In this document: one piece after another, positions 32,760 through 60,511 of the stretch
Layout: every line of letters starts with the position of its first letter
Numbering within the stretch: the stretch's first letter is position 1
Source of the DNA: a virus
Lineage: Duplodnaviria > Caudoviricetes
Strand: one strand, 5' to 3'
DNA: 64,000 nucleotides
IMG/VR virus record: IMGVR_UViG_2856153290_000001
Span: 1 to 64,000 of that record
The notes under the pieces: generated by a model
Databases searched by the model: none
What the model was told of the DNA's origin: nothing
What the model saw: only the letters and a program-made list of their open reading frames with translations
Translations under genes and position numbers: made by a program

Positions 32760-32947
32760 GGCTGGTATCTCAGTGGTTGAGGCGGCGGGTGGCGCAAGAC
32801 GATGCCCTGGACGAGCGTGACCTGCCCGACGCCGACCTTCGCAATCCGTTCGAGGGCGACTGGCTGGACGCTCACGAGCGCGCCACCGGCGAGCGCGTTC
32901 GTCTTTCCGCCCCGGGCCATGTAGGAAAACCCGACCGGGAGCGGTGA
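32753..32947 (+). CDS. Small hypothetical protein
   Basis: Overlaps the upstream stop. Confidence 0.4.
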   Translation: MLRLVSQWLRRRVAQDDALDERDLPDADLRNPFEGDWLDAHERATGERVRLSAPGHVGKPDRER

Positions 32948-32964
32948 CACCCCTCCCGCATCAT
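32924..32964 (+). promoter_or_regulatory. Late promoter motif 1
   Basis: GGAAAA-N29-CATCAT upstream of the head protease gene. Confidence 0.7.
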
Positions 32965-32997
32965 GCCCCCATGGGAGTCAACCGTGAGGGCATCACC

Positions 32998-33819
32998 ATG
33001 CAGCAACCTCCGCTGATCAAGTACAACCTGAAGGAGCGTGGCCGCCAGTTCCGTGGCGTGGAGCGCAACTTCGACATTCCGGCCATCGTGGCCAGCGTCA
33101 ACAGTCCCGCCACGCAGGAGCGCGTGGCCACGCGCGGCATGTTGGGCTACTTCGGCCATTGGCCGCGCGTGCGCTTCGGCATGGAGCCCGCCGAGGGCGG
33201 CATGGCCGATGGCAAGGCCCAAGCCGTCGAGCCGGCGGTGGTCACCACCCATCTGCGGGCCTACGACGACGGCACCATCGAGCACCAGACCGAGTTCCTG
33301 GACACCGCCACCGGGCAACTGGCGTCGCGCATGTACGCCAATCGCGTCGGCGGCTTCTCGTCTGCCATCGACCCGCGCAAGCCTGAGCTCTACGGCTTCG
33401 ACTGGGTGAACGACCCGAACTACTCGACCAACCGGGGCTATGACCTGGTGCTGGACAGCGTGACCAGCGGCGAAATGTCCTTCGATGACGTGCTGGCGGC
33501 CGAGCACGCCGACCAGATGGACGCCATGAACCGGCTGTTCGAGATGATGGACGCCAGCATGCGCCTGGCCCTGGATTCCGCCGCCCGCTTCGAGCGCGAG
33601 AACAGCGAGCTGCTCGATCTGCTGAGCAAGCACGAAGAGGCTGGCAAGGCCGTGCTGACCGACAGCGCGGCCACGCCCCGCGACGTGACCAAGCAGCTGG
33701 AGCGCGACCGCCAGTTCTTCATGGACAGCGCGCTGCCGCGCTTCCAGGATCCCGAGGCGAAAGTGGAGAACGACCGCGACTACCTGCGCCTGAAGCGTCG
33801 GATGTTCCTCCATGTTTGA
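32998..33819 (+). CDS. Prohead processing protease (P1 Pro-like)
   Basis: GYFGH, IEHQTEFLDT, VGGFSSA, YGFDWVNDPNY motifs. Confidence 0.75.
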   Translation: MQQPPLIKYNLKERGRQFRGVERNFDIPAIVASVNSPATQERVATRGMLGYFGHWPRVRFGMEPAEGGMADGKAQAVEPAVVTTHLRAYDDGTIEHQTEFLDTATGQLASRMYANRVGGFSSAIDPRKPELYGFDWVNDPNYSTNRGYDLVLDSVTSGEMSFDDVLAAEHADQMDAMNRLFEMMDASMRLALDSAARFERENSELLDLLSKHEEAGKAVLTDSAATPRDVTKQLERDRQFFMDSALPRFQDPEAKVENDRDYLRLKRRMFLHV

Positions 33820-34537
33820 GCCGGTCAAGGCCGGGCTCGGCGAGTTCATGCAGGCGTTCTATGCCGAGGTGGTGCCGACCACGCGCCCCCTGGTCGAATT
33901 CGTCGAGCGCGGCTTCCCGTACTGCGTAGCCTGGGCGCCGACGCGCATGGTCGACCGGGCCGAGGAGATGCTGGCCGCCTACCAGCGCAACGACACGCGC
34001 CAGGGGCCGACACGGCCGCCCGACCTGCCGGTCATCCTGGTGGCCGTGGCCAAGGACTGGGTGCCGGCCGGCCGCGAGTTCACGACGCAGATCGCCGACC
34101 CGGTGGACATCACCTTTCCCGACGACCCGAAACAGCGCTACTTCCGCGTCAAGGCAGTGGCCGGCGACGTCAGGGCGCAGGTGGCCATCTTCGCCAGCGA
34201 CGAGCCGACGGCCAAGAGCCTGGCCGCCCAGCTGCTGCTGTTCCTCGACTCGCCGAGCCGGCGCCGCTTCCTGGCGCGCTACCCGTTCGCCGGCCTCGAG
34301 CACGAGTACCCGGCTCAGGTGGAGGCGCCCGACAACCCGGCCTCGAGCATCGACACCGGCAGCCAGAACCTGACCGTGCTGGCCGTCGACCTGACGCTGA
34401 AGTGCACGGTACCCATCTTCATGGCGCCCAAGGCCGGCGAGCCCAACGACGGCAAGGGCACGCCCGGTACCGACGACCCGGCGGGCTACCCGCTCACCAA
34501 CGAGGTCGATGCCGTCGGCCAGGAGCCGAGCCCATGA
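33812..34537 (+). CDS. Virion structural protein (tail completion/neck-like)
   Basis: Late-operon position; LPVI motif. Confidence 0.55.
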   Translation: MFEPVKAGLGEFMQAFYAEVVPTTRPLVEFVERGFPYCVAWAPTRMVDRAEEMLAAYQRNDTRQGPTRPPDLPVILVAVAKDWVPAGREFTTQIADPVDITFPDDPKQRYFRVKAVAGDVRAQVAIFASDEPTAKSLAAQLLLFLDSPSRRRFLARYPFAGLEHEYPAQVEAPDNPASSIDTGSQNLTVLAVDLTLKCTVPIFMAPKAGEPNDGKGTPGTDDPAGYPLTNEVDAVGQEPSP

Positions 34538-36933: not shown

Positions 36934-36954
36934 TCCTTGCTGCTGTCGACCGTT

Positions 36955-36977
36955 GCCGGCCACGCGCCGGCTTTTTT
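36955..36977 (+). terminator. Intrinsic terminator
   Basis: GCCGGC-cacgc-GCCGGC-TTTTTT. Confidence 0.8.
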
Positions 36978-36991
36978 GTGCCCGCAAACCC

Positions 36992-37032
36992 GGAAAATCG
37001 CCCGCCGACCCGTCCGGGAGCGGGCTCAGACT
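36992..37032 (+). promoter_or_regulatory. Late promoter motif 2
   Basis: GGAAAA-N29-CAGACT upstream of the capsid gene. Confidence 0.7.
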
Positions 37033-37091
37033 CACCCTATCCGGCCACCTGGTCGGCCTTGCACCTACCGTAGAGCAAAGGAGAGAGGGCT

Positions 37092-38771
37092 ATGCCTCAC
37101 CACTACCACAGCCGCGAGACCGCCGAGGTCGCCGAGTTCATCGATTCCTTCCGCCAGGAGTCGGTCAAGAGCGGCGTCTTCGATTCGGCCGCTGCCGACG
37201 ACTTCCTGACCACCGCGATCAACCAGAGTGCCGGCGTCAAGGTGCCGCAGAAGCTGCAAGCCGCACTCGACGAGGCCGACGACAAGTCCGCATCCATGCT
37301 GTCGCGCGCCATCTTCGACGGCGCCGCCGTCTACGAGCAGGCCCACGGCGCCCCCTGCCCGGCCGACGTCATGCAGCAGGCCATTCACCTGGCCTACGCC
37401 ACCACCAATGACGCGCGCCGCAAGATGGGCATGACCCTGGACTCCGCGACCAGCGAAGGCCATGACGCGCTGTCGCTCCAGCCCAACCGGGCGGTGGTCG
37501 CCATCCTGGCCGCCCTGACCGAGGCGATTCCGTTTGCCCACTACCTGCCGGCGGATATCAACTCCAACGAGGCCAAGCTGGCCATCATGACCCACCAGGC
37601 GGGCCGCGACTACGGTCGTTACAGCGCTGGCGGCATCATGGACGGCGCCAATTCCGGCGACACCTACATCTCGTCCAGCCGCGAGCACAAGTGCGAGGTC
37701 GAGACCGACGCCGAGGGCGACCCGACCGGCAACATCACCGGCAAGCTGACCGCCATTCAGGACACCGACGAGACCTGCGACCCCGATGCCGCAACGGTCA
37801 AGCTGCTGCGCGGCCGCGCCATCGTCTACGTCGACGGCATGATCGTCGCCAAGGAAGTGAGCTCCACCGGTACCGGCACGTCCGCGGTCAGCGGCCAGGT
37901 CGACATCGAGGGCACCACGCACCAGATCGGCGGCACCATCAACCCGGATACCGGCGCCATCGCTCTGACCGCCCAGCCGCCGCTGCCGGCCAGTTCCCAC
38001 GTGCTGGTGGAGTCGTTCATCGACTACGAGCGCGCCCCGGAGCTGACGCCGGAGATCATCACCGCCGTCGACACCTTCCAACTGTTCGCCAAGCCGTGGC
38101 GGGTGACCACCCACCAGACCATCGACAGCCGTACCCAGATGGCCAACGAGCTGGGTCTGGACCCGTACAGCGAGGGCGTGCTCGGCATCCAGTCGCAGTT
38201 CGCCAACGAGCGCCACTACGAGGTGCTGCGCAAGGCGCGTCGACTGGCTGGCCGCAACCAGGAGACCTTCGACTTCGCGTGGGCCTCGCAGGGTGACTAC
38301 AAGTCCCGGGCCGACGTGTGGCGCGACTTCAACGCCGTCGTGGGCGCCGTCAGCCAGCGCATGGCGCTGTCCACCATGAACCACGGCGTCACCCACCTCT
38401 ACGTGGGCGAGAACGTCGCCGCCCAGATGCAGGGCCTGCCCGCCGATATCTGGGAGCCGTCCGGCGTCGTCGAGCGTCCCGGCATCTTCCGCCTGGGCCG
38501 CCTGTTCGGCCGCTACGACGTCTACTACAGCCCCAAGGTGGTGCTCGAGACCGCCAACAGCGCCGAGGTGCTGTGCGTGGGGCGTGCCACCGACGTGACC
38601 CGCAACCCGTTCGTGCTGGGCGATGCCGTGCCGCCGACCGTGATTCCGCTGGCCACCAACGCCGACCTGAAGTCGGGCGCCGGCTTCTACGCGCGCAACT
38701 TCACCAGCGTGAACCCGCACCAGCCCAGCTCCACCGGCTGCGCGCTGATCAACGTCACCAACCTGTTCTAA
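37092..38771 (+). CDS. Major capsid protein (P1 gp23-like)
   Basis: 559 aa, strongly biased codons, IDYERAP and GIFRLGRL motifs; own promoter; upstream of the sheath gene as in P1. Confidence 0.8.
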   Translation: MPHHYHSRETAEVAEFIDSFRQESVKSGVFDSAAADDFLTTAINQSAGVKVPQKLQAALDEADDKSASMLSRAIFDGAAVYEQAHGAPCPADVMQQAIHLAYATTNDARRKMGMTLDSATSEGHDALSLQPNRAVVAILAALTEAIPFAHYLPADINSNEAKLAIMTHQAGRDYGRYSAGGIMDGANSGDTYISSSREHKCEVETDAEGDPTGNITGKLTAIQDTDETCDPDAATVKLLRGRAIVYVDGMIVAKEVSSTGTGTSAVSGQVDIEGTTHQIGGTINPDTGAIALTAQPPLPASSHVLVESFIDYERAPELTPEIITAVDTFQLFAKPWRVTTHQTIDSRTQMANELGLDPYSEGVLGIQSQFANERHYEVLRKARRLAGRNQETFDFAWASQGDYKSRADVWRDFNAVVGAVSQRMALSTMNHGVTHLYVGENVAAQMQGLPADIWEPSGVVERPGIFRLGRLFGRYDVYYSPKVVLETANSAEVLCVGRATDVTRNPFVLGDAVPPTVIPLATNADLKSGAGFYARNFTSVNPHQPSSTGCALINVTNLF

Positions 38772-38781
38772 GGAGTAGCAC

Positions 38782-39369
38782 ATGACTCGACTGGTCATCG
38801 GGCGCCCCGCCGTAGGCGGGATGGGCGCCAACCAGAAGGCCAAGGAGGCGTTCAGCGGGGCCGAGTTCCCGCTGACCGTGAACGTCGCCAACAAGATGAC
38901 GATCACGCTCAGCCTGCCCGAGGCCGGTATCAAGCTGCGCCCGCTGGCCAGCGGCGTGGCTACGTTCCGCGACTACGACCGCCTGCAGCGTGCGGTATCC
39001 AGCCTGGAGCAGATCGCCAGGCTCAACAACGCCGCCCAACTGGTCATCCTGGAAGCGGCCGAACCGTCAGCCGAGGAAGCCAAGGCCGCCGCCGAGCCTG
39101 CGCCTGAGGGTGATGCCGGCGAAACCGGCGACACCAGCGGCAGCGGCGACGGCGATAGCGCTGGCGGTGACGGCACCGAGCAGACGCCCGAGGGCGGGGT
39201 AGAAGTGGCGGTCACCATCGTGCAGGACGACGAGCAGGCGTTTGTCGTCGAGCTGGACGGCGTGCGCTTCGAGCCGCTGCGCAACCAGGTGCGCGAGGAC
39301 GGCACGCTGACCGCCGGGGGTCTCAAGGCCTTCGAGGAAGCCAAGGCCGCCGCCGGGGCTGACGACTAA
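38782..39369 (+). CDS. Hypothetical virion protein
   Basis: AAGGAG RBS; two domains joined by an acidic linker. Confidence 0.7.
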   Translation: MTRLVIGRPAVGGMGANQKAKEAFSGAEFPLTVNVANKMTITLSLPEAGIKLRPLASGVATFRDYDRLQRAVSSLEQIARLNNAAQLVILEAAEPSAEEAKAAAEPAPEGDAGETGDTSGSGDGDSAGGDGTEQTPEGGVEVAVTIVQDDEQAFVVELDGVRFEPLRNQVREDGTLTAGGLKAFEEAKAAAGADD

Positions 39370-39384
39370 AAGGGGGCATCAGCC

Positions 39385-41037
39385 ATGACCGTGTCATTCG
39401 TACGACAGCTCGGCGCCGAGTCGGGGGTTCAGCTGAACCCCCTGGTCGACGGCTCCGAGATTCCGACGACCGGCAATGAGGACCAGCTGTTCGCCATTGC
39501 CATGCGCGCCTCCCGCGGGCGCATCGACCGCGCTTTCAAGGTCAATCGCAGCAACGTCCGCCAGCGCCTGGGGCATGGCGAGCCGATGCGTGACAACGAG
39601 CTCAACGAGGCCTATGTCCACGTCCGTGAGGCGCTGGACAACGGCGCCTACGAGGCCGTGGTGGCGCGCCTGCACTCCGACGCCGCCGTGCTGAGCTGGA
39701 TCGTGGTCCGGGAGGAAGTGGCCGGCGATCCCGAGGAGCCGACCGGGGGCTTCGTCTTCGAGGTGTCGGAGACCGAGCCCGAATCCGCCTTCCTGTTCGC
39801 CGTGAAGCACCTGGAGTGTTTCAACGACGGCGTGATGGTCGAGTTCCGGGCCGACGAGAAGCGCGAGGGCGGGGTCAACGTCGCCAACGACGTCATCACC
39901 CTGCGCCTGCTCGAGCCCAACGGCGACAAGCTCATCGAGATCACGGGCTCACTGGATCGCGACGCCAAGGACGACAGCGGCAACTCCTACTACCTGCCGA
40001 ACGTCATCGAAAGCCGTACCGACCGCCTCGAGGTCCTGACCGGCGCCACGACCGTCATCGAGCCGGACTCCGACGCCTACGGCTATGACGAGATCTTCCG
40101 CGAGAAGTGGGCGACCTCCGAGGTGCTGGAGTACTTCGACGAGGGCGGTACCGCCTACGCCGTCGACGACTACGTGCGTGCCCGTGACCAGCTCTACGGC
40201 ACTCAGCACGGCTATGCCTACATCGCGTCCGGCGGCAGCGAGGCGCCGGCACTGATCGCCGAGCTGGCCCGGCTGGGCTTCGACACCAACCGTCAGCTGC
40301 GCGTCGACGTTCCCGGGCATCTCGACGTCGAGGGCGCCATTGCCTTCGTCGAGCAGATGAACCTGGGCAGCATGGCCGAGGCGCACCTGCTGCACGTCTT
40401 CTGGGCGCCGCTCAAGAGCAATGACCCGACCGGCATCAACGGCAAGCGCCACTTCGGTACCGCCACGCTCAACATCGCGCTGGCGTGCGGCCGCAACGCG
40501 CGTGTCAACGCCAAGGGCTTCGCGCCGAAGAACTACCCGATTGCCGGCCGTGAGTGGCCGGTTCGCCGCCAGGGCATCGTGCAGACCTACACGCCCAACA
40601 ACCAGGAGCTCAACGCCCTGGCCCGGGCGAAGATCAACCCGGTGGTCTTCGAGAACTACTCCGGGGGCGGTCGCTACGTGTTCCGCGACTCGCTGACCAG
40701 CGCGCAGGTGGATTCCAGCCTGAAGAAGCTGATCGCGGTCGCCGACATGTCGACCTCCGTCGACGATGCCGTCACGCGCGCCGGCAAGGACTTCCTGCAG
40801 CTGCCGATGAACGTCTCCATCAAGCGCATGCGGGACTTCCTGACCACTCTGTTCGAGGGCGCGGAAGCCTCCGGATGGCTGGTACCGTCCGACGACCCGG
40901 CCATGGGCGGCGCGGCCTGGCGCTTCGAGGTCCAGCCCAACGAGCAGCGGCCGTATGAACTCATGGATGTCCGCTACTGGCTGCGCTACGACGGCACCAA
41001 CCGCCAGACCCACGTGACCCAGACGCTGAGCCGCTAA
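39385..41037 (+). CDS. Contractile tail sheath protein (P1 gp22-like)
   Basis: 550 aa; YPIAG, LARAKINPV, VFRDSLT sheath-like C-terminus. Confidence 0.8.
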   Translation: MTVSFVRQLGAESGVQLNPLVDGSEIPTTGNEDQLFAIAMRASRGRIDRAFKVNRSNVRQRLGHGEPMRDNELNEAYVHVREALDNGAYEAVVARLHSDAAVLSWIVVREEVAGDPEEPTGGFVFEVSETEPESAFLFAVKHLECFNDGVMVEFRADEKREGGVNVANDVITLRLLEPNGDKLIEITGSLDRDAKDDSGNSYYLPNVIESRTDRLEVLTGATTVIEPDSDAYGYDEIFREKWATSEVLEYFDEGGTAYAVDDYVRARDQLYGTQHGYAYIASGGSEAPALIAELARLGFDTNRQLRVDVPGHLDVEGAIAFVEQMNLGSMAEAHLLHVFWAPLKSNDPTGINGKRHFGTATLNIALACGRNARVNAKGFAPKNYPIAGREWPVRRQGIVQTYTPNNQELNALARAKINPVVFENYSGGGRYVFRDSLTSAQVDSSLKKLIAVADMSTSVDDAVTRAGKDFLQLPMNVSIKRMRDFLTTLFEGAEASGWLVPSDDPAMGGAAWRFEVQPNEQRPYELMDVRYWLRYDGTNRQTHVTQTLSR

Positions 41038-41046
41038 GGAGAGACC

Positions 41047-41760
41047 ATGTCTGATCTGCAAAACATGCTGCGTGGCGTGATGTACCCGCGCCACAAGCAG
41101 CCCGACCCCAAGCCCGCCGCCGAGGAGTCTCGGCGGTACCTGCTGCTCGACGATGCCGGCGAACCGATGCTCGACAGTGCCGGCGAGCACGAGCACATGA
41201 GCCTGCGCATGGACGCCGTGGCCGTCATCCAGCAGTGGATCGAGGAAGACGACCTCGACGACGGCGAGAGCAGCGCCGACCGCCTGCTGGCAATGATGGT
41301 CGGCATCGCCGACGGCAACCAGGACGGCGAGCTCGACGAGGACGAGCACGAGGTCGTCGACGTCGCCCGTGAGGCGGCCTGGGACTACCTGTCGGCCCTG
41401 GGTATCGAAGACGAGGATATCGGCCTGCTGCTCGACGACTGGGACGACGAGGCCGCCGAGCGGATCCGCGACGCCGTGGCGGCCGCGCTGCCCGACGGCG
41501 ACGACGAGGCCGATACCGCCATCGACAACTTCACCTTCGACGACGCCGACCAGGAGGCGGTCTTCGACGCCACCTACCGCAAGCGCACCGTCGTTCGCGG
41601 GGGCAAGAAGAAGCGCGTCAACAAGCGCGTGTCCGGCAAGGTGCGGCTGTCCGGCAAGCAGAAGCTGGCCATTCGCAAGGCGCGTAACAAGGCACACAGT
41701 CCGCGCGCCAAGGCGCGTCGCCTGAAGTCGATGCGCGTGCGCCGCAAGATGGGGATGTAA
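41047..41760 (+). CDS. Acidic/basic bipartite head protein (prohead-core-like)
   Basis: D/E-rich body, then about 60 aa K/R-rich tail. Confidence 0.6.
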   Translation: MSDLQNMLRGVMYPRHKQPDPKPAAEESRRYLLLDDAGEPMLDSAGEHEHMSLRMDAVAVIQQWIEEDDLDDGESSADRLLAMMVGIADGNQDGELDEDEHEVVDVAREAAWDYLSALGIEDEDIGLLLDDWDDEAAERIRDAVAAALPDGDDEADTAIDNFTFDDADQEAVFDATYRKRTVVRGGKKKRVNKRVSGKVRLSGKQKLAIRKARNKAHSPRAKARRLKSMRVRRKMGM

Positions 41761-41782
41761 CCCTTTTCGAGGGGTGTTGCTT

Positions 41783-41806
41783 GGCGGCCGGTGGCCGCCT
41801 TTTTTT
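41783..41806 (+). terminator. Intrinsic terminator
   Basis: GGCGGCC-ggt-GGCCGCC-T7. Confidence 0.8.
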
Positions 41807-41822
41807 CTGACGGGAGTCTGAC

Positions 41823-42581: not shown

Positions 42582-43339
42582 TGATTCACTTCCCGACCCT
42601 GCGCACCCGACGCCTGACGGTGCGCCTCAAAGAGCTGGCGATGATCGACGCCATCGCCCTGGCGGCCATTCCGCCACACCTCAACGAAGAAGCGACGACC
42701 GTCTTCCTGCGCGCGGCCGTCGACGATGCCCAAGGCGTTTCCGATCCCGACCAGTGGACGGTGCAGGAGCGCACGATGGCTGTCTGCCACTACATGGCGT
42801 CGACCCTGGACGATGGCCCCGACTTCAGCCTGGCCGGTGGCAAGGCGCGTTTCTCCGACTACCTGACGGGCGAGCGTGACTACGGCGCCGACAGCGTAGA
42901 CGTCGGCGAGATCGAGGGCGACCACTGGACGGCACGCCACCTGACCGGCGCCCTGGCCGGTGCCGTCGAGCGCTTGACCGGCGAACTGCCGGGCGTCGAC
43001 GGCCTGGCGCACTGGCGAATCGGCCGCATGGCGGCGCAGCTCGTGCCCAATGGCAACGCGGTACCGGCCGAGGGTGATATCGACGCCGCTCTGCTGGAGC
43101 GCATGCGTGTCATCACTCGCTACCCCGAGAGTGTGTTCGCCCGCCTGTCGGCCGGCTTCGACGCCGCCTGCCAGGAGCTGGACCACCTGTTTCTGATCGA
43201 TGCCGACGAGCACGGCCTGATGGCCCTGCCAAGGGAGGATAGCGCGGCTGGCAAGCCGCCGGCGCGATTTCCAGTTGGCGCCTGCCTCACAGACCTCGCG
43301 CGACAGTTGGGTGGAAAACCAGCGGCTGCTCGCCCATAG
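42578..43339 (+). CDS. Morphogenesis protein (tail/baseplate assembly chaperone-like)
   Basis: DPDQWTVQER motif; position. Confidence 0.55.
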   Translation: MMIHFPTLRTRRLTVRLKELAMIDAIALAAIPPHLNEEATTVFLRAAVDDAQGVSDPDQWTVQERTMAVCHYMASTLDDGPDFSLAGGKARFSDYLTGERDYGADSVDVGEIEGDHWTARHLTGALAGAVERLTGELPGVDGLAHWRIGRMAAQLVPNGNAVPAEGDIDAALLERMRVITRYPESVFARLSAGFDAACQELDHLFLIDADEHGLMALPREDSAAGKPPARFPVGACLTDLARQLGGKPAAARP

Positions 43340-43553
43340 CCTGGCCCTATATTCGGCGACATCACTTCCCGACGCGCTGCGCATGACCGGCAGCGAGGCC
43401 GAGGCCTTCTTCGAGGGCAAGGCCTACGCCGATTGGCGCAAGGGGAAGGAGCAGGAACTGAAGCTGCAGGCTGCCGTCAGCGACCGCTTGAACGGTGTGA
43501 TCAGGGCCTGCGGCGCAATCGTAAAGACGGTGGCATCACTGGGGCGTCGTTGA
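43275..43553 (+). CDS. Small hypothetical protein (start uncertain; alternative ATG 43383)
   Basis: Good codon usage in EAEAFFEGKAYADWRK; overlaps the upstream gene. Confidence 0.5.
   Translation: MAPASQTSRDSWVENQRLLAHSLALYSATSLPDALRMTGSEAEAFFEGKAYADWRKGKEQELKLQAAVSDRLNGVIRACGAIVKTVASLGRR
43313..43353 (+). promoter_or_regulatory. Late promoter motif 3 (intragenic, upstream of the lysis cassette)
   Basis: GGAAAA-N29-TATATT. Confidence 0.55.
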
Positions 43554-43596
43554 CGGGCGTCGTGAGGTGTCCGGCCATGCGCGACAGGAGGGCGAT

Positions 43597-43953
43597 GTGG
43601 CAGAACCAACTACCAGCGCAGCGGCGGCAACGGCGACGGCGACCGGTATCGGCCTGGCGGCCCTGCTGCCCTGGATCGACGCCAATGCCCTGATGGGGGC
43701 GGCGCTCGGCGCCGGCCTCGTGGCCTACAGCAAGTCCGACCTGCGAGCCTGGCAGCGCCTGGGCGCGCTGCTGTTCTCCGCCCTGTGCGGCTATCTCATG
43801 ACACCCGAGATCGTGGCGCAAACCCCGGTGACCCACGACGGAGCGGGCGGGTTCATCGGCGCCATCGTCGTCGTCCCGCTGTCGCTGAAGCTCATCCAGC
43901 ACGTCGAGAGGTTCGACCTGGCGACGTGGCTCGACCGCCGGAAAGGCAAGTGA
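43597..43953 (+). CDS. Putative holin
   Basis: Multiple TM segments, basic C-terminus, AGGAGG RBS before GTG. Confidence 0.75.
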   Translation: MAEPTTSAAAATATATGIGLAALLPWIDANALMGAALGAGLVAYSKSDLRAWQRLGALLFSALCGYLMTPEIVAQTPVTHDGAGGFIGAIVVVPLSLKLIQHVERFDLATWLDRRKGK

Positions 43954-43962
43954 GGCTCGGCA

Positions 43963-44271
43963 ATGGCTGATACCGGGGTACTTCAAAGCATCGCGCCGGC
44001 ACTGGCGGCCTTCAGCTACTTCATCGCCGCCATGCGCCTGGCCACCTTCCGCCGCGGCGCGCGCCGCTACAAGCCGTGCGTGTCGCTACTGGCCAGCGTG
44101 CTGATTGGCACCCTGCTGTGCGCCGGCCTCGAAGTCGTGTTTCTCAAGCCTGAGGTGAGCCTGTTCCAGACCGTGCTCGCCGCCCTGTTTTGTGTCCTGA
44201 CGCTGCGTGCTCGGGGCAATGTCGCCAGCCTGATGAGGATGTCCTATGACGGCACTTCTGAGACGAGGTAG
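43963..44271 (+). CDS. Phage holin family protein
   Basis: 3 TM segments; FRRGARRYK and ARGNVA motifs. Confidence 0.75.
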   Translation: MADTGVLQSIAPALAAFSYFIAAMRLATFRRGARRYKPCVSLLASVLIGTLLCAGLEVVFLKPEVSLFQTVLAALFCVLTLRARGNVASLMRMSYDGTSETR

Positions 44272-44950
44272 CCGCGGCGAGGCCGTGCGCGCCCTGCAAC
44301 AAGAGCTCAACCGCCAAGCCGGCGCTGGACTGGTCGATGACGGCGTGTTCGGTCCCGTCACCGAGCGGGCGGTCAAGGCCTTCCAGCGCAGCCGGGGGCT
44401 GACGCCTGACGGGCTGGTCGGCCCCGCTACCCGCGGGGCGCTGGGCACTGCCCCGAAACGGCCGGCCCCCGGGCAGGGCGAGGCCAATCTGTGCGCCTTC
44501 CTGGACATGATCGCCTTCGCCGAGGGTACGGACCGTTACGGCGAGCAGGACGGCTATGACGTGCTGGTCGGCGGCGAGCTGTTTACCGACTTCAGCGACC
44601 ACCCCAACAAGCGGGTCTGGCTGCCGGCCTATGGCATCCATTCCACGGCGGCCGGCCGGTACCAGATCCTGCACCGTTACTGGAAGCACTACCAGGCGCA
44701 GCTCGGCCTGCCCGACTTCGGCCCGGCATCACAGGACCTCTACGCGGTTCAGCAGATCCGGGAGCGGCGCGCCTATGACGACGTGCTGGCCGGGCGTATC
44801 AGCGACGCCATCCGCAAGTGCGCCAACATCTGGGCGTCCTTCCCGGGCGCGGGCTACGGCCAGCGCGAAGTCGCCGAACGCGAGCTGATCGCCTTCTACC
44901 GCCGGAAGGGTGGGCGGCTCGAGCACGAGACAGGGGAGATGACGGCATGA
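44246..44950 (+). CDS. Endolysin: PG-binding domain + lambda-R-type muramidase
   Basis: LRRGSRGEAV...DGVFGPVT...FQ...DGLVGP; AFLDMIAFAEGT, STAAGRYQ, WASFPGAGYGQ. Confidence 0.92.
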   Translation: MTALLRRGSRGEAVRALQQELNRQAGAGLVDDGVFGPVTERAVKAFQRSRGLTPDGLVGPATRGALGTAPKRPAPGQGEANLCAFLDMIAFAEGTDRYGEQDGYDVLVGGELFTDFSDHPNKRVWLPAYGIHSTAAGRYQILHRYWKHYQAQLGLPDFGPASQDLYAVQQIRERRAYDDVLAGRISDAIRKCANIWASFPGAGYGQREVAERELIAFYRRKGGRLEHETGEMTA

Positions 44951-45687: not shown

Positions 45688-45708
45688 GCCAGGGCGCCGA
45701 GACCGAGC

Positions 45709-45749
45709 GGAAAACCCGGGGGCTGCGCGCTCCCGGGCAGCGATAGTCT
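45709..45749 (+). promoter_or_regulatory. Late promoter motif 4
   Basis: GGAAAA-N29-TAGTCT upstream of the tail tube gene. Confidence 0.7.
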
Positions 45750-45814
45750 GGGCGCTCAAGGCCATGGAACGCCATGGCTCGTGCTGACTTGATCCCAACC
45801 ATCGAGGCTACGCC

Positions 45815-46692: not shown

Positions 46693-46698
46693 ACCGCC

Positions 46699-48059: not shown

Positions 48060-48072
48060 CAAGGAGCCCGCC

Positions 48073-49326: not shown

Positions 49327-49345
49327 CCACCAGGCTGCACGGCCA

Positions 49346-49386
49346 GGAAAAGCCGAGGCCGGCAGCCTGTCTCTCTCCCATAGCAT
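49346..49386 (+). promoter_or_regulatory. Late promoter motif 5
   Basis: GGAAAA-N29-TAGCAT upstream of the dar operon. Confidence 0.7.
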
Positions 49387-49442
49387 GGCCCCATCTGCGC
49401 GCCCGTCGCGGCGCCCCGATCCACCCATTACAGGGGCCTACT

Positions 49443-53591
<4,149 letters not shown>

Positions 53592-53605
53592 GGAGACACT
53601 GAGGA

Positions 53606-56600
53606 ATGAAGCGGATTTTTGACGACGCATCGGCCGGTGGCGGCGCGCAGGCGATGATGACCCGGCTCAAGCTGGTGTCGGAGCTGGGTAGGGTGCGCAA
53701 GGAGCTGATCACTCTCCCGCAGGGCATCGGCGCCATGGCTGACCGGCTGCGCCTGGTGAAGCGGGCCAACGAGGTTCGCGCCGAGCTGAAGGCGGCCACC
53801 CTGGCCGCCGACCCGGCAAAGGCGATGCAGGCCGAGCGCGAGCCGCCGGAGCCGGTAGGCGAGCCGCGCCGCCAGACCGCCGGCCTGTACAGCCACGACG
53901 AGAAGCGCACCCGGGGGCAGCGTCAGAAGGCCAACGATGCCGCTGTCGAGCTGCTCGCCAGGGTGCAGTCCGGCGAGTTGCCCCGGGACGAGATCACCGA
54001 CGAGCATCGCGCCGTGCTGGCCGGCTACTCCGGCAACGGCGGGGCGCTGGTCGGCGCCGATGGCAAGAAGGGGTCGGCCTACGAGTACTACACCCCGCCA
54101 CCAGTGGCAGAGGGCATCTGGCGCGCCCTGGCGGAGATGGGTTTTGCCGGTGGCAAGATTCTCGACCCGGCCGGCGGTACCGGCATCTTCGGCGCCTCGG
54201 CGCCACGCAATGCTGCCGTGGACGCCGTGGAGATCGACGAGACGTCCGGTGCCGTCAATGAGCTGGTCAATGGCGGTCCCGGCTATCACGTGTCGGTGGC
54301 GCCCTTCGAGCAGGTGGCGGCCGCCACGCCCGACGAGGCCTATGACGCGGTGGTCACCAACGTGCCGTTCGGTACCGTCGCCGACCGGGGCGGCAACCAG
54401 AACCTGGACCCCAAGTACCAGAAGGAGACGCTGGAGGCCTACTTCATCCTGCGCTCACTCGACAAGCTGAAGTCCGGCGGGCTGGCCGCTTTCGTCGTGC
54501 CGCCGCGCTGCGTCTCCGGGCGCGGTGGCGCCGAGGTCAAGCTACGCCAGCGGGCCAGCCTGAAGGCCGAATTCCTAGGCGCCTATCGGCTGCCCAACAG
54601 CGTGTTCGGCGCCGCCGACGCGGACACGATCACCGACGTCATCTTCTTCCGCAAGTACGGCCGCGATGCCGCGGAGAAGATCGAGGAGCTGCACGAGCAG
54701 GCGCCCGAAACCCTGGCCGAGGCCAAGGTCATGTGGAGCGAGTTCGTCGAGGGGCGCTACTTCAAGGGTGAGGGCAAGCGCTTCGTGCTCGGCGAGTTCG
54801 TGCCCAAGGATCCCGAGAAGTTCCGCGACGTCGACCGCGTGAAGAATCCGGCCAGCATTCCCGAGGTCGCCAGGCTGATCCGCCGGCTGCCTGGTAGTCG
54901 CGTGGACTGGGCGCTGCTGGAAGCGGCCGAGACGCAGCCCATCGTCTACCGTGAGGGCGATACCCTCACTCAGGCCGGGCAGACCCTGCAGATGCAGGAC
55001 GGCGAGTGGGTGCCGCTGGCGTCCGCTGACAGCGATATGCGAGGCGTCGAGCTGCTGGGGCGGTTCAAGGACGCCTACACCGCCTTCGATGCCGGCATGG
55101 GCTACGTCGATGCCGTCACGCTGCGCCAGTACATGCGCGATACCTCGCAGTCGCTGGACATGCCCGCCTGGCTGGCGTCGGCGCTGGCCGCGCTGGACAA
55201 GCTGGCCGACGACGAGGCGCGGGCGCGTGCCTGGGCGCCCGGCCTGGTGGGACTGGCCGTGTCGCAGGTGCTGGACGAGAACGGCCGCGGCAGCGGTACC
55301 GACTTCCTGACCGGCTACGCCAAGCTGTCGGCCGCCATGCGCGAACAGGCGGCCGCCGCCCGGCGCGTCAAGGGCGTGGACGGCGAGCTGCGCCGCGGGC
55401 TCGGCGAGCTGGTCACCCACTACCAGCGCAAGGCCGGATTCAGCGCGCTGTGGCGTGGCGACGTTCAGCAGGCGCCGACCATGCAGGTCAGCGCCGCCCA
55501 CGGCTTCGAGGGCCTTCTGTACGAGAACCAATCGAGCTGGACCACCCTGGAGCAGGCGCGCAGCGTGCTGGGCGACGACTTCAGCCCGTTCGACAGCGAC
55601 GACTGGTGCGTGTCCGCCGACGGCAGCCAGGTGTGCCGGGCCGACGACTACTTCGTGGGCAGCTACGCCGACTTCGTCAAGCGGATCGACGCCGAGATGG
55701 CGGCCGCGCCTGGCGAGCAGCTGCGCGCCAAGCTCATGCGACAGAAGGCGGTGGCCGCCGAGCGCATCGACCGCGTCGACGTGTCGCGCATCAGCTTCAA
55801 CCTGTTCAGCCCCTACGTCACCCTGGAAGAGAAGGCCGAGTTCCTGCGCCGCTTCGTCCACCCCAGCGCCGTGGTGGCCATCGATGAGGCCAGCGGCGAG
55901 CCGCGCATCGAGTTCGATATTCCCGGCAGCAAGCTGACCGACCGAGAGAAGCTGATTCGGCGAATCGGCGCCTACCTGCGCAACGGCACCATCACCCTGG
56001 GCGGTACCAAGCTGGACATGGGCGATGCGGCAGGCATCCGCGAGCTGCGCGCCATGGTCAACAAGGCCAACGAGCAGTTCAACGGCTGGGCGCGAGGGAA
56101 TGCGGTCGTCGTGTCGCGCCTGGAGGGGCAGGCCAACGACCCGGCCAGGCTGCGTTTCCGTCAGCCCGAGGACGAGAGCCCGCTGGCCATTCCGGGCATG
56201 AATCCCGAGCTCGAGCTGCACGGCTATCAGAACGCCTACGTGCGCTCCCGGGCCCGCGATTTCTCCGGCATCAACGGCTTCGACGTCGGGCTCGGCAAGA
56301 CCTTCACCGCCCTGGCGGTCGCCCAGTACGTGCAGGCCATCGGCGCCAAGCAGAAGACCCTGTTCGTGGTGCCCAACTCGGTGCTCTCCAACTGGCACAA
56401 GGAGGCCGTCAAGGCCTACGCGAGCATCGACGACTGCCTGTTCGTAGGCCTGCGCGACGGCGAGGTGTCGTCTGCCGCCTACGACGAAGATCTCAACCGG
56501 GTGCTGGAGAACCGCCACCGCAAGATCTTCATGACCATGGAGGCCTTCGAGCGCATCCGCCTGCGTGATGACACGATCACCGGCTACGAGTCCTACATGC

Positions 56601-59600
56601 GGTCCGCCGACCAGTCCTTCGCCGAGAGCGAGGATCGCAAGGCCGACGAGCGCGCCAAGGGCAAGGCGGCCACCATCGTCGACGTGCTGGGCAAGAAAGA
56701 GGGCGCCGCCCCCTTCCTGGAAGACATGGGCGTTGACTCGCTGGTCGTCGACGAAGCCCACGTGTTCAAGAACTCGGCGACCACCGTGGACTTCAAGGGC
56801 GGCAAGTACCTGTCGCTGTCACCGGCATCCAAGCGCGGCCTCGACGCGCAGGCCAAGGCCTGGGCGATTCGTGGTGGCGACGGCGCCCGCGGCGATGGCG
56901 TCATGCTGCTGAGCGCGACGCCCATCACCAACAGCCCGCTGGAAATCTACTCCATGATGGCCCTGGCCGTGGGTCATGACCGGGTCAACGACCTGTTCGT
57001 CGGCACCTCGGGCGCCGACGGCTTCATGAACGCCGTGTGCCAGATCGAGAACGAGGATGATGAATCGATCGACGGCGAGAGCCGCGCCATCAACGTCTTC
57101 AAGGGTCTCAACAACGTCGACATGCTGCGCGGCGCGCTGCGCCAGGTGGCCACGATCAAGAGCGCCGATGACGTCGGCAGCCAGATCAAGGTGCCGGACG
57201 CGCCGGAGCGCGCCACGCCCATCCAGTTGCCGGAGTCGACCGTCGTGCAGCTGGAGGAGTACAAGCAGGCCTATCGCTATGCCGCCGACGCCATGTCGGA
57301 GCGTGGCGAGAACCGCGGCGACCCGGCCGCCTTCGAGCGCATCGCCGGCAAGTTCGGCGAGCCGATGGAGCTCGTCGGCCATCCGTTCAACCTGATCAAC
57401 AAGATGACGATGCTCATCGCCGACCCCGATCTCGACGCCCGGGTGTCGCGCTACCTGATCAACGAGGGCGAGGAAGAGCAGGCGCGGGCACTGGTGGAGC
57501 AGTGGAACGCCAAGCCGCCGACCGAGCAGCGCACGCGCCCGGGGCCGAATGCCAGCGCCGACGAGGCGGTCAGCGTGAAGACCATCCGCGACGCCAACCG
57601 TGAGGTGGTCGGCCGCCAGTACAAGATTCCGGTCAAGGCCTGGATCGAGGGCGGCGCCATCGTGCTCGACACCGTGAGCGCTGACACGCAGGAGCGTTTC
57701 GAGACCATGGCCGGCAAGGCGGGCGTCGAGCTCGACGTCTCGGTACCGCCCAAGCTGGCGGCCCTGCTCGAGAACTTCCAGACCGAGGCGGCAACGCCCC
57801 GCGGCGTGGATGCCGACGGCAACCGCACGCCCCATGCCAAGCAGATCATCTTTTGCGACCTGCTGGGCATGCACAACAAGATCCGCCGGCTGCTTGTGCG
57901 CCGGGCCGGCGTGCCGGAGGCGGCCATCGCCGTCGTCACCGGGCAGCGCAACAACAGCCCGGAGGAGATCATGGCGGTGCAGGACGGCTTCAACGCCCCG
58001 GGCGAGGCCAACAAGTACCGCGTGATCATCGCCAACGAGAAGGCGGAGGTCGGCATCAACCTGCAGAAGGGCACGCAGGCCATCCATCACCTGACCATTG
58101 GCTGGACGCCGGACAGCCTGACCCAGCGCAACGGCCGCGGCGTGCGCCAGGGCAACAAGACCGAGCAGGTCACGGTCTACCACTACGACGCCGACGGCAC
58201 CTTCGACACCGCCAAGCGTTCCCTGGTCAACAGCAAGGCCGACTGGATCGGCGCCATGATGAAGCCCGACGGCGGCGACAGCCTGGCCATCAGCGGCGGC
58301 ATGAGTCGCGAGCAGATGGAGGCGCTGATCGACGTCGTCGGCGACGCTGACGCGGTGACGCGCATTCAGGAGGCGATGGCCGCCAAGGAGGCCGAGCGCC
58401 GGGCGACCACCAATCGCGAGCGTCAGCGCATCAACCTGGACACCATCGACAAGCAGAACCGCTTCCTCGAGGAGAATGCGTCGGCGGCCGACTGGGTGGC
58501 GCGCAAGGTGGGGCAGCTGATGTCCGCCATGGCTCAGACCGAGAAGGTGCGCAAGCGGCTGTCACGCGCCAAGTCGGAGTCGTCGCGGGCCAAGAACGAG
58601 AGCCTGCTGGCCGAAATGGAAGTCAGGGAGCGTGGCTTGCAGCGCCAGATCGAGGAGGCGGCGACCTTCCATCGGGCGAGCTACAACTATCAGACCCGCC
58701 AAGCCGAGCGGCTGGACGACGACCCGCTGAGCGTCCGCGAGGTGGTGACCACCTTCCTGGATCGCGCCAAGCGCGGCGAGAACCGCGCGTCCGACCTGGT
58801 GGCGGCGCTGCGCAGCGGGCGCCTGGGTTACGGCGCGGTCGACATCGCCGTCAACGAGGAGGCGGAGCTGGTCAACGAGTGGGAGTCCGAGGTCGACATG
58901 GCGCGCCAGATGCGCCGCCAGGCGGTGGAGAGCTATCAACGCCAGGCCAAGGAGGCCGGCGGCCTGCCGGCCGGCGTCGCCGAGGCCTTCGCTGCCGACA
59001 AGGGCGTGATGGTGGCCGACCGGCCGGTGATTGCCGAGTGCTTCATCACCGTCGATGACGACCTGTTCGCGGTCAGCCCCGAGTCCCTGGCGCAGTTTCG
59101 CCCCAGTGCGGTCGGCTACGTCGACGGCCGAGAGCAGCGGGCTACGCTGGCCGCCCTGGTGCCGCTGGGCGACGTTGCCTACCCTGGCAGCCGTGAGCAC
59201 GATGCCTGCCTGGTGCGCGCGGCCGCGATGGAGGATGCCGCCGAGCGCGATGGCCAGACGCTGCGCCTCTACACCGATGCCTGCCCCGAGGTGGCCACGC
59301 GCCGCGAGACCACGGTCATGGCGCGCTATTCGGCCCGCGACTACTCGCTGCCGGCGCCGCACTTCCCGATTCCGCTGGATCCGGAGCGCGTCACCCCGGA
59401 CTCCCCGGCGCTGGCTCGCATCGTCGACGAGCAGCGTCAGCTGATCGAGCGCTGGGAAGGCATGAGCTTCGTGGTGGCCGGCGATGTCGAGGTCGCGCGC
59501 GGCCAGCCCGGCCTGGTAGAAGCCCTGCGCGACTATGCCATCGCCCACGGACTGAAAGTCACGCTGGCCGACTTCGGCCCCGGGCAGATGTTCCGCCTCA

Positions 59601-60040
59601 AGCAGGTGGTGCGCGAGCACTTCGACGACGCGGCGTTCGAGGCGGCCCTGGTCGGCGAAACCGGTGAGGAGATCGGGCGCAGCGTCGAGCGCTATGTGAC
59701 GAGTGCGGTGCCGTGGTTCGACTTCGAGGGCGAGGCACAGTCATACTTGCCGCCACACCTGCAGCACCGGGCAACGATGGCGGTCGCCGACAGGGCGCCG
59801 GCCGAGGAGCCGGGCGAGCCGGTGCCGGCCGTCAGCGACGACGGCGACCCTGACGAGATGGTGCTGGTCGAGGGCGAGACCCGCGCGTGGAAGGACCGCA
59901 TCAAGGAGTACGGTACCCGTCACGGCAGCTATCGGCGCTGGATGCGCAAGGAGACGGCATGGCGCGTTCGCCGCCGGGCCTGGAACGCACTGCTCGCCGA
60001 CTTCCCGCGGGCGGCGGAAGAACTCAACCTGAGGGCCTGA
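53606..60040 (+). CDS. darB: DarB-like protein: N6-MTase + SNF2 helicase
   Basis: ILDPAGGTGIF and VVTNVPF MTase motifs; FDVGLGKT, DEAH, SATP, GINLQ, QRNGRGVRQGN helicase motifs; 2144 aa. Confidence 0.88.
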   Translation: MKRIFDDASAGGGAQAMMTRLKLVSELGRVRKELITLPQGIGAMADRLRLVKRANEVRAELKAATLAADPAKAMQAEREPPEPVGEPRRQTAGLYSHDEKRTRGQRQKANDAAVELLARVQSGELPRDEITDEHRAVLAGYSGNGGALVGADGKKGSAYEYYTPPPVAEGIWRALAEMGFAGGKILDPAGGTGIFGASAPRNAAVDAVEIDETSGAVNELVNGGPGYHVSVAPFEQVAAATPDEAYDAVVTNVPFGTVADRGGNQNLDPKYQKETLEAYFILRSLDKLKSGGLAAFVVPPRCVSGRGGAEVKLRQRASLKAEFLGAYRLPNSVFGAADADTITDVIFFRKYGRDAAEKIEELHEQAPETLAEAKVMWSEFVEGRYFKGEGKRFVLGEFVPKDPEKFRDVDRVKNPASIPEVARLIRRLPGSRVDWALLEAAETQPIVYREGDTLTQAGQTLQMQDGEWVPLASADSDMRGVELLGRFKDAYTAFDAGMGYVDAVTLRQYMRDTSQSLDMPAWLASALAALDKLADDEARARAWAPGLVGLAVSQVLDENGRGSGTDFLTGYAKLSAAMREQAAAARRVKGVDGELRRGLGELVTHYQRKAGFSALWRGDVQQAPTMQVSAAHGFEGLLYENQSSWTTLEQARSVLGDDFSPFDSDDWCVSADGSQVCRADDYFVGSYADFVKRIDAEMAAAPGEQLRAKLMRQKAVAAERIDRVDVSRISFNLFSPYVTLEEKAEFLRRFVHPSAVVAIDEASGEPRIEFDIPGSKLTDREKLIRRIGAYLRNGTITLGGTKLDMGDAAGIRELRAMVNKANEQFNGWARGNAVVVSRLEGQANDPARLRFRQPEDESPLAIPGMNPELELHGYQNAYVRSRARDFSGINGFDVGLGKTFTALAVAQYVQAIGAKQKTLFVVPNSVLSNWHKEAVKAYASIDDCLFVGLRDGEVSSAAYDEDLNRVLENRHRKIFMTMEAFERIRLRDDTITGYESYMRSADQSFAESEDRKADERAKGKAATIVDVLGKKEGAAPFLEDMGVDSLVVDEAHVFKNSATTVDFKGGKYLSLSPASKRGLDAQAKAWAIRGGDGARGDGVMLLSATPITNSPLEIYSMMALAVGHDRVNDLFVGTSGADGFMNAVCQIENEDDESIDGESRAINVFKGLNNVDMLRGALRQVATIKSADDVGSQIKVPDAPERATPIQLPESTVVQLEEYKQAYRYAADAMSERGENRGDPAAFERIAGKFGEPMELVGHPFNLINKMTMLIADPDLDARVSRYLINEGEEEQARALVEQWNAKPPTEQRTRPGPNASADEAVSVKTIRDANREVVGRQYKIPVKAWIEGGAIVLDTVSADTQERFETMAGKAGVELDVSVPPKLAALLENFQTEAATPRGVDADGNRTPHAKQIIFCDLLGMHNKIRRLLVRRAGVPEAAIAVVTGQRNNSPEEIMAVQDGFNAPGEANKYRVIIANEKAEVGINLQKGTQAIHHLTIGWTPDSLTQRNGRGVRQGNKTEQVTVYHYDADGTFDTAKRSLVNSKADWIGAMMKPDGGDSLAISGGMSREQMEALIDVVGDADAVTRIQEAMAAKEAERRATTNRERQRINLDTIDKQNRFLEENASAADWVARKVGQLMSAMAQTEKVRKRLSRAKSESSRAKNESLLAEMEVRERGLQRQIEEAATFHRASYNYQTRQAERLDDDPLSVREVVTTFLDRAKRGENRASDLVAALRSGRLGYGAVDIAVNEEAELVNEWESEVDMARQMRRQAVESYQRQAKEAGGLPAGVAEAFAADKGVMVADRPVIAECFITVDDDLFAVSPESLAQFRPSAVGYVDGREQRATLAALVPLGDVAYPGSREHDACLVRAAAMEDAAERDGQTLRLYTDACPEVATRRETTVMARYSARDYSLPAPHFPIPLDPERVTPDSPALARIVDEQRQLIERWEGMSFVVAGDVEVARGQPGLVEALRDYAIAHGLKVTLADFGPGQMFRLKQVVREHFDDAAFEAALVGETGEEIGRSVERYVTSAVPWFDFEGEAQSYLPPHLQHRATMAVADRAPAEEPGEPVPAVSDDGDPDEMVLVEGETRAWKDRIKEYGTRHGSYRRWMRKETAWRVRRRAWNALLADFPRAAEELNLRA

Positions 60041-60041
60041 C

Positions 60042-60461
60042 ATGGCATTCACTGAACACCTGTTCGACAAGGACGACATCAAGGCGCTGGCCCGGCAACG
60101 GGCCGCCGCCCTCAAGGAGAATCGCGGCTTCTCCGACTTCCCCGGGTTCGCGCTCGGCGTGATCGAGCGCCGCCTGGCCAAGGACCCGCTTCGGTACCGG
60201 GACTACGGGCCGTACTGGTGGGCGGTCAAGGCGCTGATGATCGACAGCGGACGGGAGCTGGGCGAACGCGACGACCCGATGGTGCGCGCCGCCTACCAGG
60301 GCGACAGTCGCGAGGAGACCATCGTCATGGCCGACGAATTCCGCACCCTGTACCTGGCCACACAGGCCGTGGGTACCAACCAGTTCCTGCTCGACGGCGA
60401 GTCCGGCGACCTCTACACCCTCGAAGACGAGGACATGGAATCCCGCCTGCCCGGCACCTAA
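60042..60461 (+). CDS. ulx: Ulx-like DarB packaging helper
   Basis: RLAKDPLRYRDYGPYW motif, recalled as similar to P1 Ulx; immediately downstream of darB as in P1. Confidence 0.7.
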   Translation: MAFTEHLFDKDDIKALARQRAAALKENRGFSDFPGFALGVIERRLAKDPLRYRDYGPYWWAVKALMIDSGRELGERDDPMVRAAYQGDSREETIVMADEFRTLYLATQAVGTNQFLLDGESGDLYTLEDEDMESRLPGT

Positions 60462-60464
60462 GCC

Positions 60465-60505
60465 GGAAAACCCCGCGCTGACCCACCCCCGGCATGGCCC
60501 ACCAT
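60465..60505 (+). promoter_or_regulatory. Late promoter motif 6
   Basis: GGAAAA-N29-CACCAT, with the portal ATG beginning 7 nt after the -10 element. Confidence 0.65.
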
Positions 60506-60511
60506 CGGGCC

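Follow-up and report, generated by a model that had tools for sequence, protein, structure and literature searches.

GGAAAA boxes at a fixed distance from a -10 hexamer mark probable late promoters of a temperate myovirus prophage remotely related to P1 and point to a candidate helix-turn-helix activator

The late region of a temperate myovirus prophage, contained in a stretch of 64,000 nucleotides (nt) of viral DNA (Duplodnaviria; Caudoviricetes; positions 1 to 64,000 of IMG/VR record IMGVR_UViG_2856153290_000001; hereafter the window), carries a repeated two-part signal in front of its gene blocks. The signal consists of a (C)GGAAAA box at about -47 to -42, an exact spacer of 29 bp (28 bp in some lineages of relatives) and a weak -10 hexamer, and it has no -35 element. 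Seven such sites head seven gene blocks, which are protease/baseplate, capsid/sheath, lysis, tube/tail, dar, portal and baseplate/fibre. The sites are very probably promoters at which transcription starts about 47–48 nt after the first G of the box. With moderate confidence, they are regarded as the late promoters of a prophage remotely related to P1, switched on by a helix-turn-helix (HTH) protein that is encoded at positions 28081-28755. Activator-dependent phage late promoters without a -35 element are already known; those of this prophage are set apart by the box, the spacing and the probable activator.

The window has a G+C content of 66.6%. The word GGAAAA occurs in it 12 times (seven copies on the + strand and five on the - strand) against 8.8 expected on both strands, and therefore the bare word is not enriched. 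All six + strand copies between 32924 and 60465 have a YANNNT hexamer exactly 35 nt after the first G (Table 1), and the one remaining + strand copy, at 20733 in the early/moron region, has no such hexamer at this spacing. The complete pattern GGAAAA-N29-YANNNT is present six times against 0.15 expected; the maximum in shuffled windows was two, and 0 of 100 shuffles reached six. An earlier reading made from the sequence alone had listed these six sites with the same coordinates and hexamers and, by eye, no other + strand GGAAAA in the late region. Both statements are borne out, as no further + strand copy exists between 28 and 64 kb, where the - strand has a single one at 48091. Its count of six is correct for the window; the total is at least seven, because a seventh site (hexamer TAGCAT) lies beyond the window, 2 kb from its end, at window-equivalent 66050, which is position G000:C1:468751 of the host genome. 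A scan of 90 kb around the prophage with one mismatch allowed in the box gave no convincing further site and none before the terminase genes. The same reading had noted the lack of a consensus -35, in agreement with the finding that no sigma-70 consensus promoter is present on the + strand between 28 and 64 kb. The whole genome of 5.48 Mb contains 31 matches to GGAAAA-N29-YANNNT among 1430 GGAAAA words. Eight of the 31 lie within C1:435625-491928, and the 23 found elsewhere are at the level of chance (about 23 by a base-composition estimate), which argues that the host is without such a promoter class.

The arrangement is also found in related phages. Xanthomonas phage Rb1 was the only isolated phage among 50,697 records that resembled the region (73% of an 8-kb query aligned, at 67% nucleotide identity). 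Rb1 has GGAAAA(A)-N29-NANNNT before the orthologous protease (19021), capsid (35213), lysis (41685), internal-head/dar (51754), portal-region (65025) and fibre (67746) genes; its site before the tube orthologue (44078) has a spacer of N28. Relatives were obtained by searching one genome per species with the sheath protein, which gave 27 prophage loci from Burkholderiales, Rhodocyclales, Neisseriales, Xanthomonadales, Ectothiorhodospira, Aeromonas, Acinetobacter, Methylobacter and other beta- and gamma-proteobacteria. The gene strand of these loci contains 253 copies of GGAAAA, with NANNNT at N29 in 102 (12.7 expected) and at N28 in 34, the latter spacing being used by the Acinetobacter, Aeromonas and Methylobacter lineages. 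Each of the other spacings from 15 to 45 gave 5–24 matches, and the opposite strand has 100 boxes with six matches at N29 and two at N28. In a separate check, orthologous genes were located by protein without conditioning on GGAAAA, and the 170 nt upstream were inspected. Upstream of the capsid orthologue, 24 of 25 loci had the exact box; for the tube orthologue the figure was 23 of 23 loci, and for the protease-like gene 15 of 18. The three misses before the protease-like gene comprise a box that lies farther upstream (L006), a GGGAAAT (L004) and a variant box at L012:2677, where GGAAAT is followed at N29 by CAAAAT. As the L012 variant keeps the correct spacing, the box may tolerate a change of its last A.

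The distance between the two elements is kept where the sequence around them has diverged. The capsids of the relatives are 34–85% identical, and the box-to--10 spacing is still exact at the orthologous intergenic places; the lysis promoter has the same TATATT site in most relatives. The 29-nt spacer is conserved neither in sequence nor in its folds, and its length alone is retained. In a profile built from 105 distinct N29 sites, the only informative positions are C-GGAAAA-(C/A), the -10 (T/C/G-A-n-A/C-A/C-T) and, weakly, two bases 7–8 nt after the -10; each of positions -30 to -13 carries <0.3 bit. The GG of the box is retained in hosts with 43–51% G+C.

With the hexamer numbered -12 to -7, motif position 48 becomes +1. 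At 7 nt after the hexamer the most frequent base is adenine, which occupies motif position 48 in five of the seven prophage sites and in 9 of the 15 sites of the prophage and Rb1 together. Start codons point to the same position. Of 137 distinct sites, 21 have an ATG that begins 6–7 nt after the hexamer, as against 0–5 sites at any other offset from 0 to 28, and 19 of these 21 ATGs open reading frames of at least 60 codons. Most of the 19 represent one orthologous promoter, that of dar, where the ATG is at +1/+2 in most relatives, yet at least five different promoters show an ATG at the start. In Rb1, the annotated coding sequence starts 51801 and 65072 coincide with the predicted start point. 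As leaderless translation needs a start codon at the 5' end, the accumulation of ATGs provides independent support for the predicted start point. The portal transcript had been proposed to be leaderless, and the portal ATG does fall exactly on motif position 48; the first gene of the baseplate block likewise has its ATG at the start point (window-equivalent 66097), and its PHROG alignment begins at residue 2. This implies that the mRNAs of both genes would be leaderless. The open reading frame (ORF) behind promoter 1, which ends at 33819, has in-frame ATGs at 32971 (at +1) and at 32998. The profile match starts at the second ATG, which also has a Shine-Dalgarno sequence (GAGGG), so that a leaderless mRNA is an ambiguous reading for this ORF.

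Hairpins accompany several of these start points. At the portal promoter, a perfect 10-bp inverted repeat (60491-60500 / 60507-60516) flanks the -10 (z = -4.0), and Rb1 has hairpins at 51754 (z = -4.8) and 65025 (z = -3.3). The hairpins at the predicted leaderless promoters are stable; their left arm is upstream of +1, and their right arm extends over the AUG. At least two of the three start-codon bases are paired with bases before the start in 11 of 21 leaderless-type sites versus 21 of 116 others, and the mean number of paired bases is 1.62 versus 0.75 in shuffles. These values are no more than suggestive of a device by which RNA read through from upstream would hide the AUG and RNA initiated at the promoter could not. 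The T4 genes for lysozyme (e), soc and 49 have a late promoter inside an inhibitory hairpin. The likeness is that the left arm is upstream of +1, so that the hairpin can fold in read-through RNA only; the difference is that the T4 mRNAs carry a Shine-Dalgarno sequence, whereas those of the prophage are predicted to be leaderless.

The protein encoded at 28081-28755 has an HTH region at about residues 30–100 and a long helical hairpin at 107–211, which is confident in the structure model; the predicted local distance difference test score (pLDDT) is 79–92 over residues 21–100. Pfam HTH_31 was matched with E 1.1e-05, and a profile search against the PDB matched ImmR with E 1e-07. Structure comparison also gave ImmR (Z 10.7, root-mean-square deviation 1.7 over 65 residues), together with C.BclI (Z 10.2), C.AhdI (Z 10.2), the P22 c2 protein (Z 9.2) and the 434 repressor (Z 8.8), and the modelled domain has the five helices of the HTH_3/HTH_31 (XRE) type. 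A Foldseek search of the PDB with the model gave no match at E <= 0.001, a BFVD search returned unnamed HTH proteins, and the fold searches overall retrieved only generic XRE domains and coiled coils. Among 24 homologues (37–83% identity), the invariant residues cluster in the HTH (Q50, A53, G58, Y59, N61, L65 and E69), an invariance that matches that of the box.

The stop codon of the HTH gene (TGA, 28753-28755) shares bases with the start codon of the small terminase gene (TerS) in the sequence TGATG, and in relatives the HTH gene lies a few bases after the preceding early gene; for these two reasons, it would be the last product of the early operon. In 9 of 10 loci, TerS follows the HTH gene directly. 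Of 14 sheath-selected genomes, 12 have a homologue of the protein, as does Rb1; none was found in P1. Relatives of the protein are encoded in 131 IMG/VR stretches. In 62 IMG/VR contigs chosen by this protein, the motif is carried by 100 of 272 + strand boxes downstream of the HTH gene versus 26 of 185 upstream of it; the controls gave 9 of 100 on the - strand and, for 18 loci that share a generic HTH only, 10 of 73. The surrounding early genes are mosaic, and the other early proteins of the prophage recur in 0–6 of the 27 such contigs with 10 kb on both sides. By these comparisons, the HTH protein appears to be the only regulator-like, early-made gene product that stays with the late module. 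The sequence-only reading had put forward a regulon with its own activator and had named this protein, and the proposal has gained from the analysis: the protein is probably the late activator, its binding to the box being inferred.

Two other candidates were rejected. The CII-like protein (22663-23286), used as the query, was found in none of five motif-bearing relatives, and a small zinc-finger gene that lies between the HTH gene and TerS in Rb1 has no counterpart in the prophage, where there is no room for it because the HTH stop overlaps the TerS start. Rb1 also has a box with GATAAT at N29 that overlaps the annotated start of its HTH gene (L001:690-730). This box, without counterpart in the prophage, suggests possible autoregulation or a mis-called start. 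In addition, two lineages of the large terminase (TerL), with 60–93% and 36–45% identity to the TerL of the window, follow the same HTH-TerS pair (IMG/VR contigs L046-L107), which points to module exchange within the packaging genes.

The proposed mechanism is as follows. Host sigma-70 polymerase alone would be unable to use these sites, and a phage activator bound at the box would recruit or position the polymerase on the weak -10 in the manner of a class II activator. Three features suggest an activator that holds the polymerase at the -10: the spacing is precise to one base across unconserved DNA, there is no -35, and the box is just upstream of the place of sigma region 4. The HTH protein, whose gene ends the early rightward operon and is joined to the terminase genes, would accumulate and switch on at least seven late units. 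Transcription would start about 7 nt after the hexamer. In some units, this start point would coincide with the A of the start codon; the mRNA would then be leaderless, and the hairpin would hide the AUG in read-through RNA only.

Several known late-gene systems resemble this arrangement in part. P1 and its activator Lpa (gp10) also represent a myovirus regulon of multiple late promoters with related virion, Pmg and Dar genes, and the promoters likewise have a -10, no -35 and one extra box. The relation of the virion, Pmg and Dar/Hdf/Ulx genes to those of P1 is remote and detected at profile level only, and the P1 sheath was absent from the tblastn results at E <= 1e-10. The late promoters in the P1 record (LP23, LP26, LPpmgL, LPhot and LPpac) consist of a 9-bp '-22 region', 4 nt and a -10, so that the P1 box lies near -22, whereas the prophage has a 6-bp box at -47 to -42. 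No homologue of Lpa was found (best tblastn E 0.47 in the 90 kb around the prophage and 0.52 in Rb1), and the distinction from the Lpa site that had been drawn from the sequence is thus upheld. P1 late promoters need host SspA. As the last early-operon gene, the HTH gene would occupy the place of Q in lambdoid phages and of lpa in P1, and, like lpa, it immediately precedes the gene for the small packaging subunit (lpa-pacA in P1, HTH-TerS here); however, P1 has a late promoter before pacA, and the terminase genes of the prophage have none. The separation from Q-type antitermination also stands, as lambdoid Q acts at a single read-through promoter and seven separate promoter-like sites are present here; Phage_antitermQ (PF06530) had no match in the genome, other Q families not having been searched. 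The HTH fold is shared with lambda cI, acting at PRM, and with the C proteins of restriction-modification (R-M) systems, whose sites are also just upstream of sigma region 4. Lambda cI and R-M C proteins contact sigma. The differences are that these proteins act as dimers on symmetric operators and that their control extends to one or two promoters.

The closest functional analogue of the proposed mechanism is the C protein of Mu. The C-dependent late promoters are described as having recognisable -10 hexamers without a typical -35, and the activator site, which has its centre at -43.5, overlaps the -35 region (PMC2582627). [quoted passage not shown] The differences are that the C dimer binds a 16-bp imperfect dyad, whereas the prophage sites have no consistent second half-site, and that the candidate of the prophage has an XRE fold and a coiled-coil tail. 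The Mor family (Pfam PF08765) had no match in the whole genome at E <= 0.01. The zinc finger of the P2 Ogr and P4 Delta activators (Pfam PF04606) had one genome match, on contig C28, and none in the prophage. Sigma70_r4 had 17 genome matches, none of them in C1:420000-480000, a search that leaves room for divergent sigma-like proteins without this domain.

A number of points weigh against activation by the HTH protein or limit the counts given above. The start points and the 'late' timing are deduced from sequence. The relatives share ancestry, and their sites are therefore not independent events; except in the orthologue-based check, sites were collected by the exact GGAAAA, and variants such as the L012 GGAAAT are under-sampled. 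The Pfam HTH_31 score of the protein is 26.1 bits, just below the 27-bit cut-off. Two of the 14 sheath-selected genomes gave no HTH match, which is uninformative as both are fragmentary metagenome-assembled genomes, and the two most distant relatives have an HTH homologue without TerS within 1.5 kb. XRE proteins usually bind dyads as dimers, and the GGAAAA box is single and asymmetric, a poor fit for such a protein. A TTTTCC-like partner (at least five of six bases) occurs in about 22 of 140 sites, at spacers of 7–8 or 15–17, and in none of the sites of the window. Co-occurrence cannot single out the HTH gene from other conserved genes of the late module because all contigs with the HTH gene carry the same structural module. 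The asymmetry of the box and the limit on co-occurrence equally favour a reading in which the sites are late promoters but the box is read by an unrecognised phage protein (a small polymerase-binding factor such as P1 Lpa and T4 gp33 are) or by a conserved host factor, and in which the HTH protein has a role in packaging or another role beside TerS. Conserved ORFs without a family do exist in the module (31280-32365, 32337-32759, 38782-39369 and 47624-48109). These ORFs are, however, downstream of or between late promoters and therefore unable to set the cascade going. Conserved along with the module, no further protein of DNA-binding or sigma-like type was found, and a host factor is hard to reconcile with a pattern that is at chance level in the host chromosome. 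Such another reader is a possible but less probable alternative.

Readings that need no activator, or no promoter, are less probable still. The A-tract of the box could be the proximal subsite of an UP element bound by the C-terminal domain of the polymerase alpha subunit, with timing set by copy number or derepression. In E. coli, the proximal UP subsite is at about -46 to -38, and UP elements are degenerate A/T-rich tracts. The AAAA at -45 to -42 falls within that subsite, and the presence of the same element in very different hosts is what a conserved part of the polymerase would lead one to expect. Nevertheless, all six bases, including the GG, are invariant at orthologous promoters, also in hosts of 43–51% G+C, while the flanks drift; the fixed spacing of 28–29 would not be demanded by a flexibly tethered domain; the -10 hexamers are poor, with neither a -35 nor a TG extension; and the pattern is not in excess in the host genome. 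An UP element acting alone is thus considered improbable. It is very improbable that the motif is an RNA-level signal for processing or translation, a product of chance or a packaging-related repeat. Hairpins do occur at several sites, either in the spacer or surrounding the -10, but no Rfam family (or tRNA) was matched anywhere in the window, the distance rather than the spacer sequence or its folds is kept, and the second element is -10-like and followed by start codons at 6–7 nt. Chance is excluded by the shuffles of the window and by the spacing counts in the 27 loci.

If the HTH protein is the activator, a more specific and more tentative picture can be drawn, in which an XRE/coiled-coil protein, instead of acting as a common dimeric operator-binder, docks rigidly on the polymerase and reads the single asymmetric 6-bp box 29 bp before the -10. 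It would define a '-45/-10' class of promoter, where the box replaces the -35, combined with hairpin-gated leaderless late mRNAs throughout the regulon. If true, a large prophage family would possess a device resembling sigma appropriation, and only promoter-initiated transcripts would be translated. Independently of this picture, the motif provides a testable map of late transcription units for a widespread prophage family, which was detected by its sheath in the genomes of 27 species and has one isolated member (Rb1) in the phage collection searched. No transcription study of the family, and no publication on GGAAAA phage late promoters or on Xanthomonas phage Rb1, was found in a literature search made mostly without subscription journals. 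The GGAAAA-N29--10 code could be used to annotate such prophages and could serve as an orthogonal switch, and the protein 28081-28755 is a candidate late-gene activator of a new type. The predicted leaderless mRNAs would form a natural set in phages, and their hairpins may distinguish promoter-initiated from read-through RNA.

Searches with PHROGs and Pfam gave the gene content of a temperate phage. The - strand carries genes for recombination, a methylase and a cI-like repressor, and the + strand encodes CII-like, Ant, O-like and NinB proteins and a Holliday-junction resolvase. These are followed on the + strand by the HTH gene, the small and large terminase genes and the long late region. 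The terminase genes have no GGAAAA promoter of their own and are predicted to be co-transcribed with the HTH gene. The late region encodes a putative prohead protease, baseplate, capsid, sheath, PmgG- and PmgB-like proteins, holins, endolysin, tail tube, an Hdf-like protein, two giant Dar-like proteins, a Ulx-like protein and the portal. A tape-measure-like gene, baseplate and fibre genes and a probable diversity-generating retroelement follow past the window end. The coordinates of the promoters and of the genes that bear on them are given in Table 1.

Table 1. Predicted late promoters and associated features of the prophage (window coordinates)
Feature	Position	Strand	Details
Candidate late activator	28081..28755	+	224 aa, XRE-type HTH and helical hairpin (predicted)
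Terminase genes	28755..31248	+	small 28755-29732, large 29725-31248
Late promoter 1	32924..32973	+	box 32924-32929; -10 CATCAT 32959-32964; predicted +1 A 32971
Intrinsic terminator	36955..36971	+	GCCGGC-cacgc-GCCGGC then T6; ends unit 1, 21 nt before box 2
Late promoter 2	36992..37039	+	box 36992-36997; -10 CAGACT 37027-37032; predicted +1 A 37039
Late promoter 3 (lysis)	43313..43360	+	box 43313-43318; -10 TATATT 43348-43353
Late promoter 4	45709..45756	+	box 45709-45714; -10 TAGTCT 45744-45749
Late promoter 5	49346..49393	+	box 49346-49351; -10 TAGCAT 49381-49386; predicted +1 A 49393
Late promoter 6	60465..60516	+	box 60465-60470; -10 CACCAT 60500-60505; predicted +1 is the A of ATG 60512

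The gene blocks assigned earlier to the six promoters are confirmed for capsid, lysis, tube, dar and portal; the name 'prohead protease' for the ORF behind promoter 1 comes from the Rb1 annotation only, and PHROGs gives it no name. Promoter 1 heads this gene and baseplate and tail genes up to 36933. Promoter 2 is followed by a leader of 53 nt, with a 5' hairpin and a Shine-Dalgarno sequence, and by the capsid gene (37092-38771), and its unit extends through the sheath gene (39385-41037) and the PmgG/PmgB-like genes to 43339. The box of promoter 3 is within the end of the PmgB-like gene, and this promoter heads the holin (43567-44271), endolysin (44246-44950) and probable spanin genes. Promoter 4 heads the tail tube gene (45815-46315), tail genes and the Hdf-like gene (48073-48555), promoter 5 the Dar-like block (49503-53591 and 53606-60040) with the Ulx-like gene (60042-60461), and promoter 6 the portal gene, which runs to 62050.

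Some further observations were made on these units and on the surrounding genes. The predicted leader of the capsid mRNA (37039-37091) opens with the 5' hairpin CCGGCC-acct-GGTCGG, and the capsid leaders of many beta-proteobacterial relatives have cAGTCGGctaccagCCGGCg as a conserved 5' hairpin, followed by a conserved Shine-Dalgarno region; this hairpin may stabilise the mRNA. Within unit 2, a strong terminator-like hairpin (GGCGGCC-ggt-GGCCGCC and T7, 41783-41799) is present between the gene 41047-41760 and the PmgG-like gene, and it may be an internal attenuator. In the early region, an island of low G+C content (56.5% versus 66%) at 20000-22000, beside the cI-like repressor, carries DUF1828 and DUF6978 genes on the - strand and looks like moron or defence cargo. 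Past the window end, the tail-fibre genes are followed by an Avd-like gene (phrog_3206) and by a gene for a reverse transcriptase (phrog_1423, E 1.4e-121) at L040:6945-8662 (window-equivalent about 70945-72662), and this pair is probably the diversity-generating retroelement, acting on the fibre.

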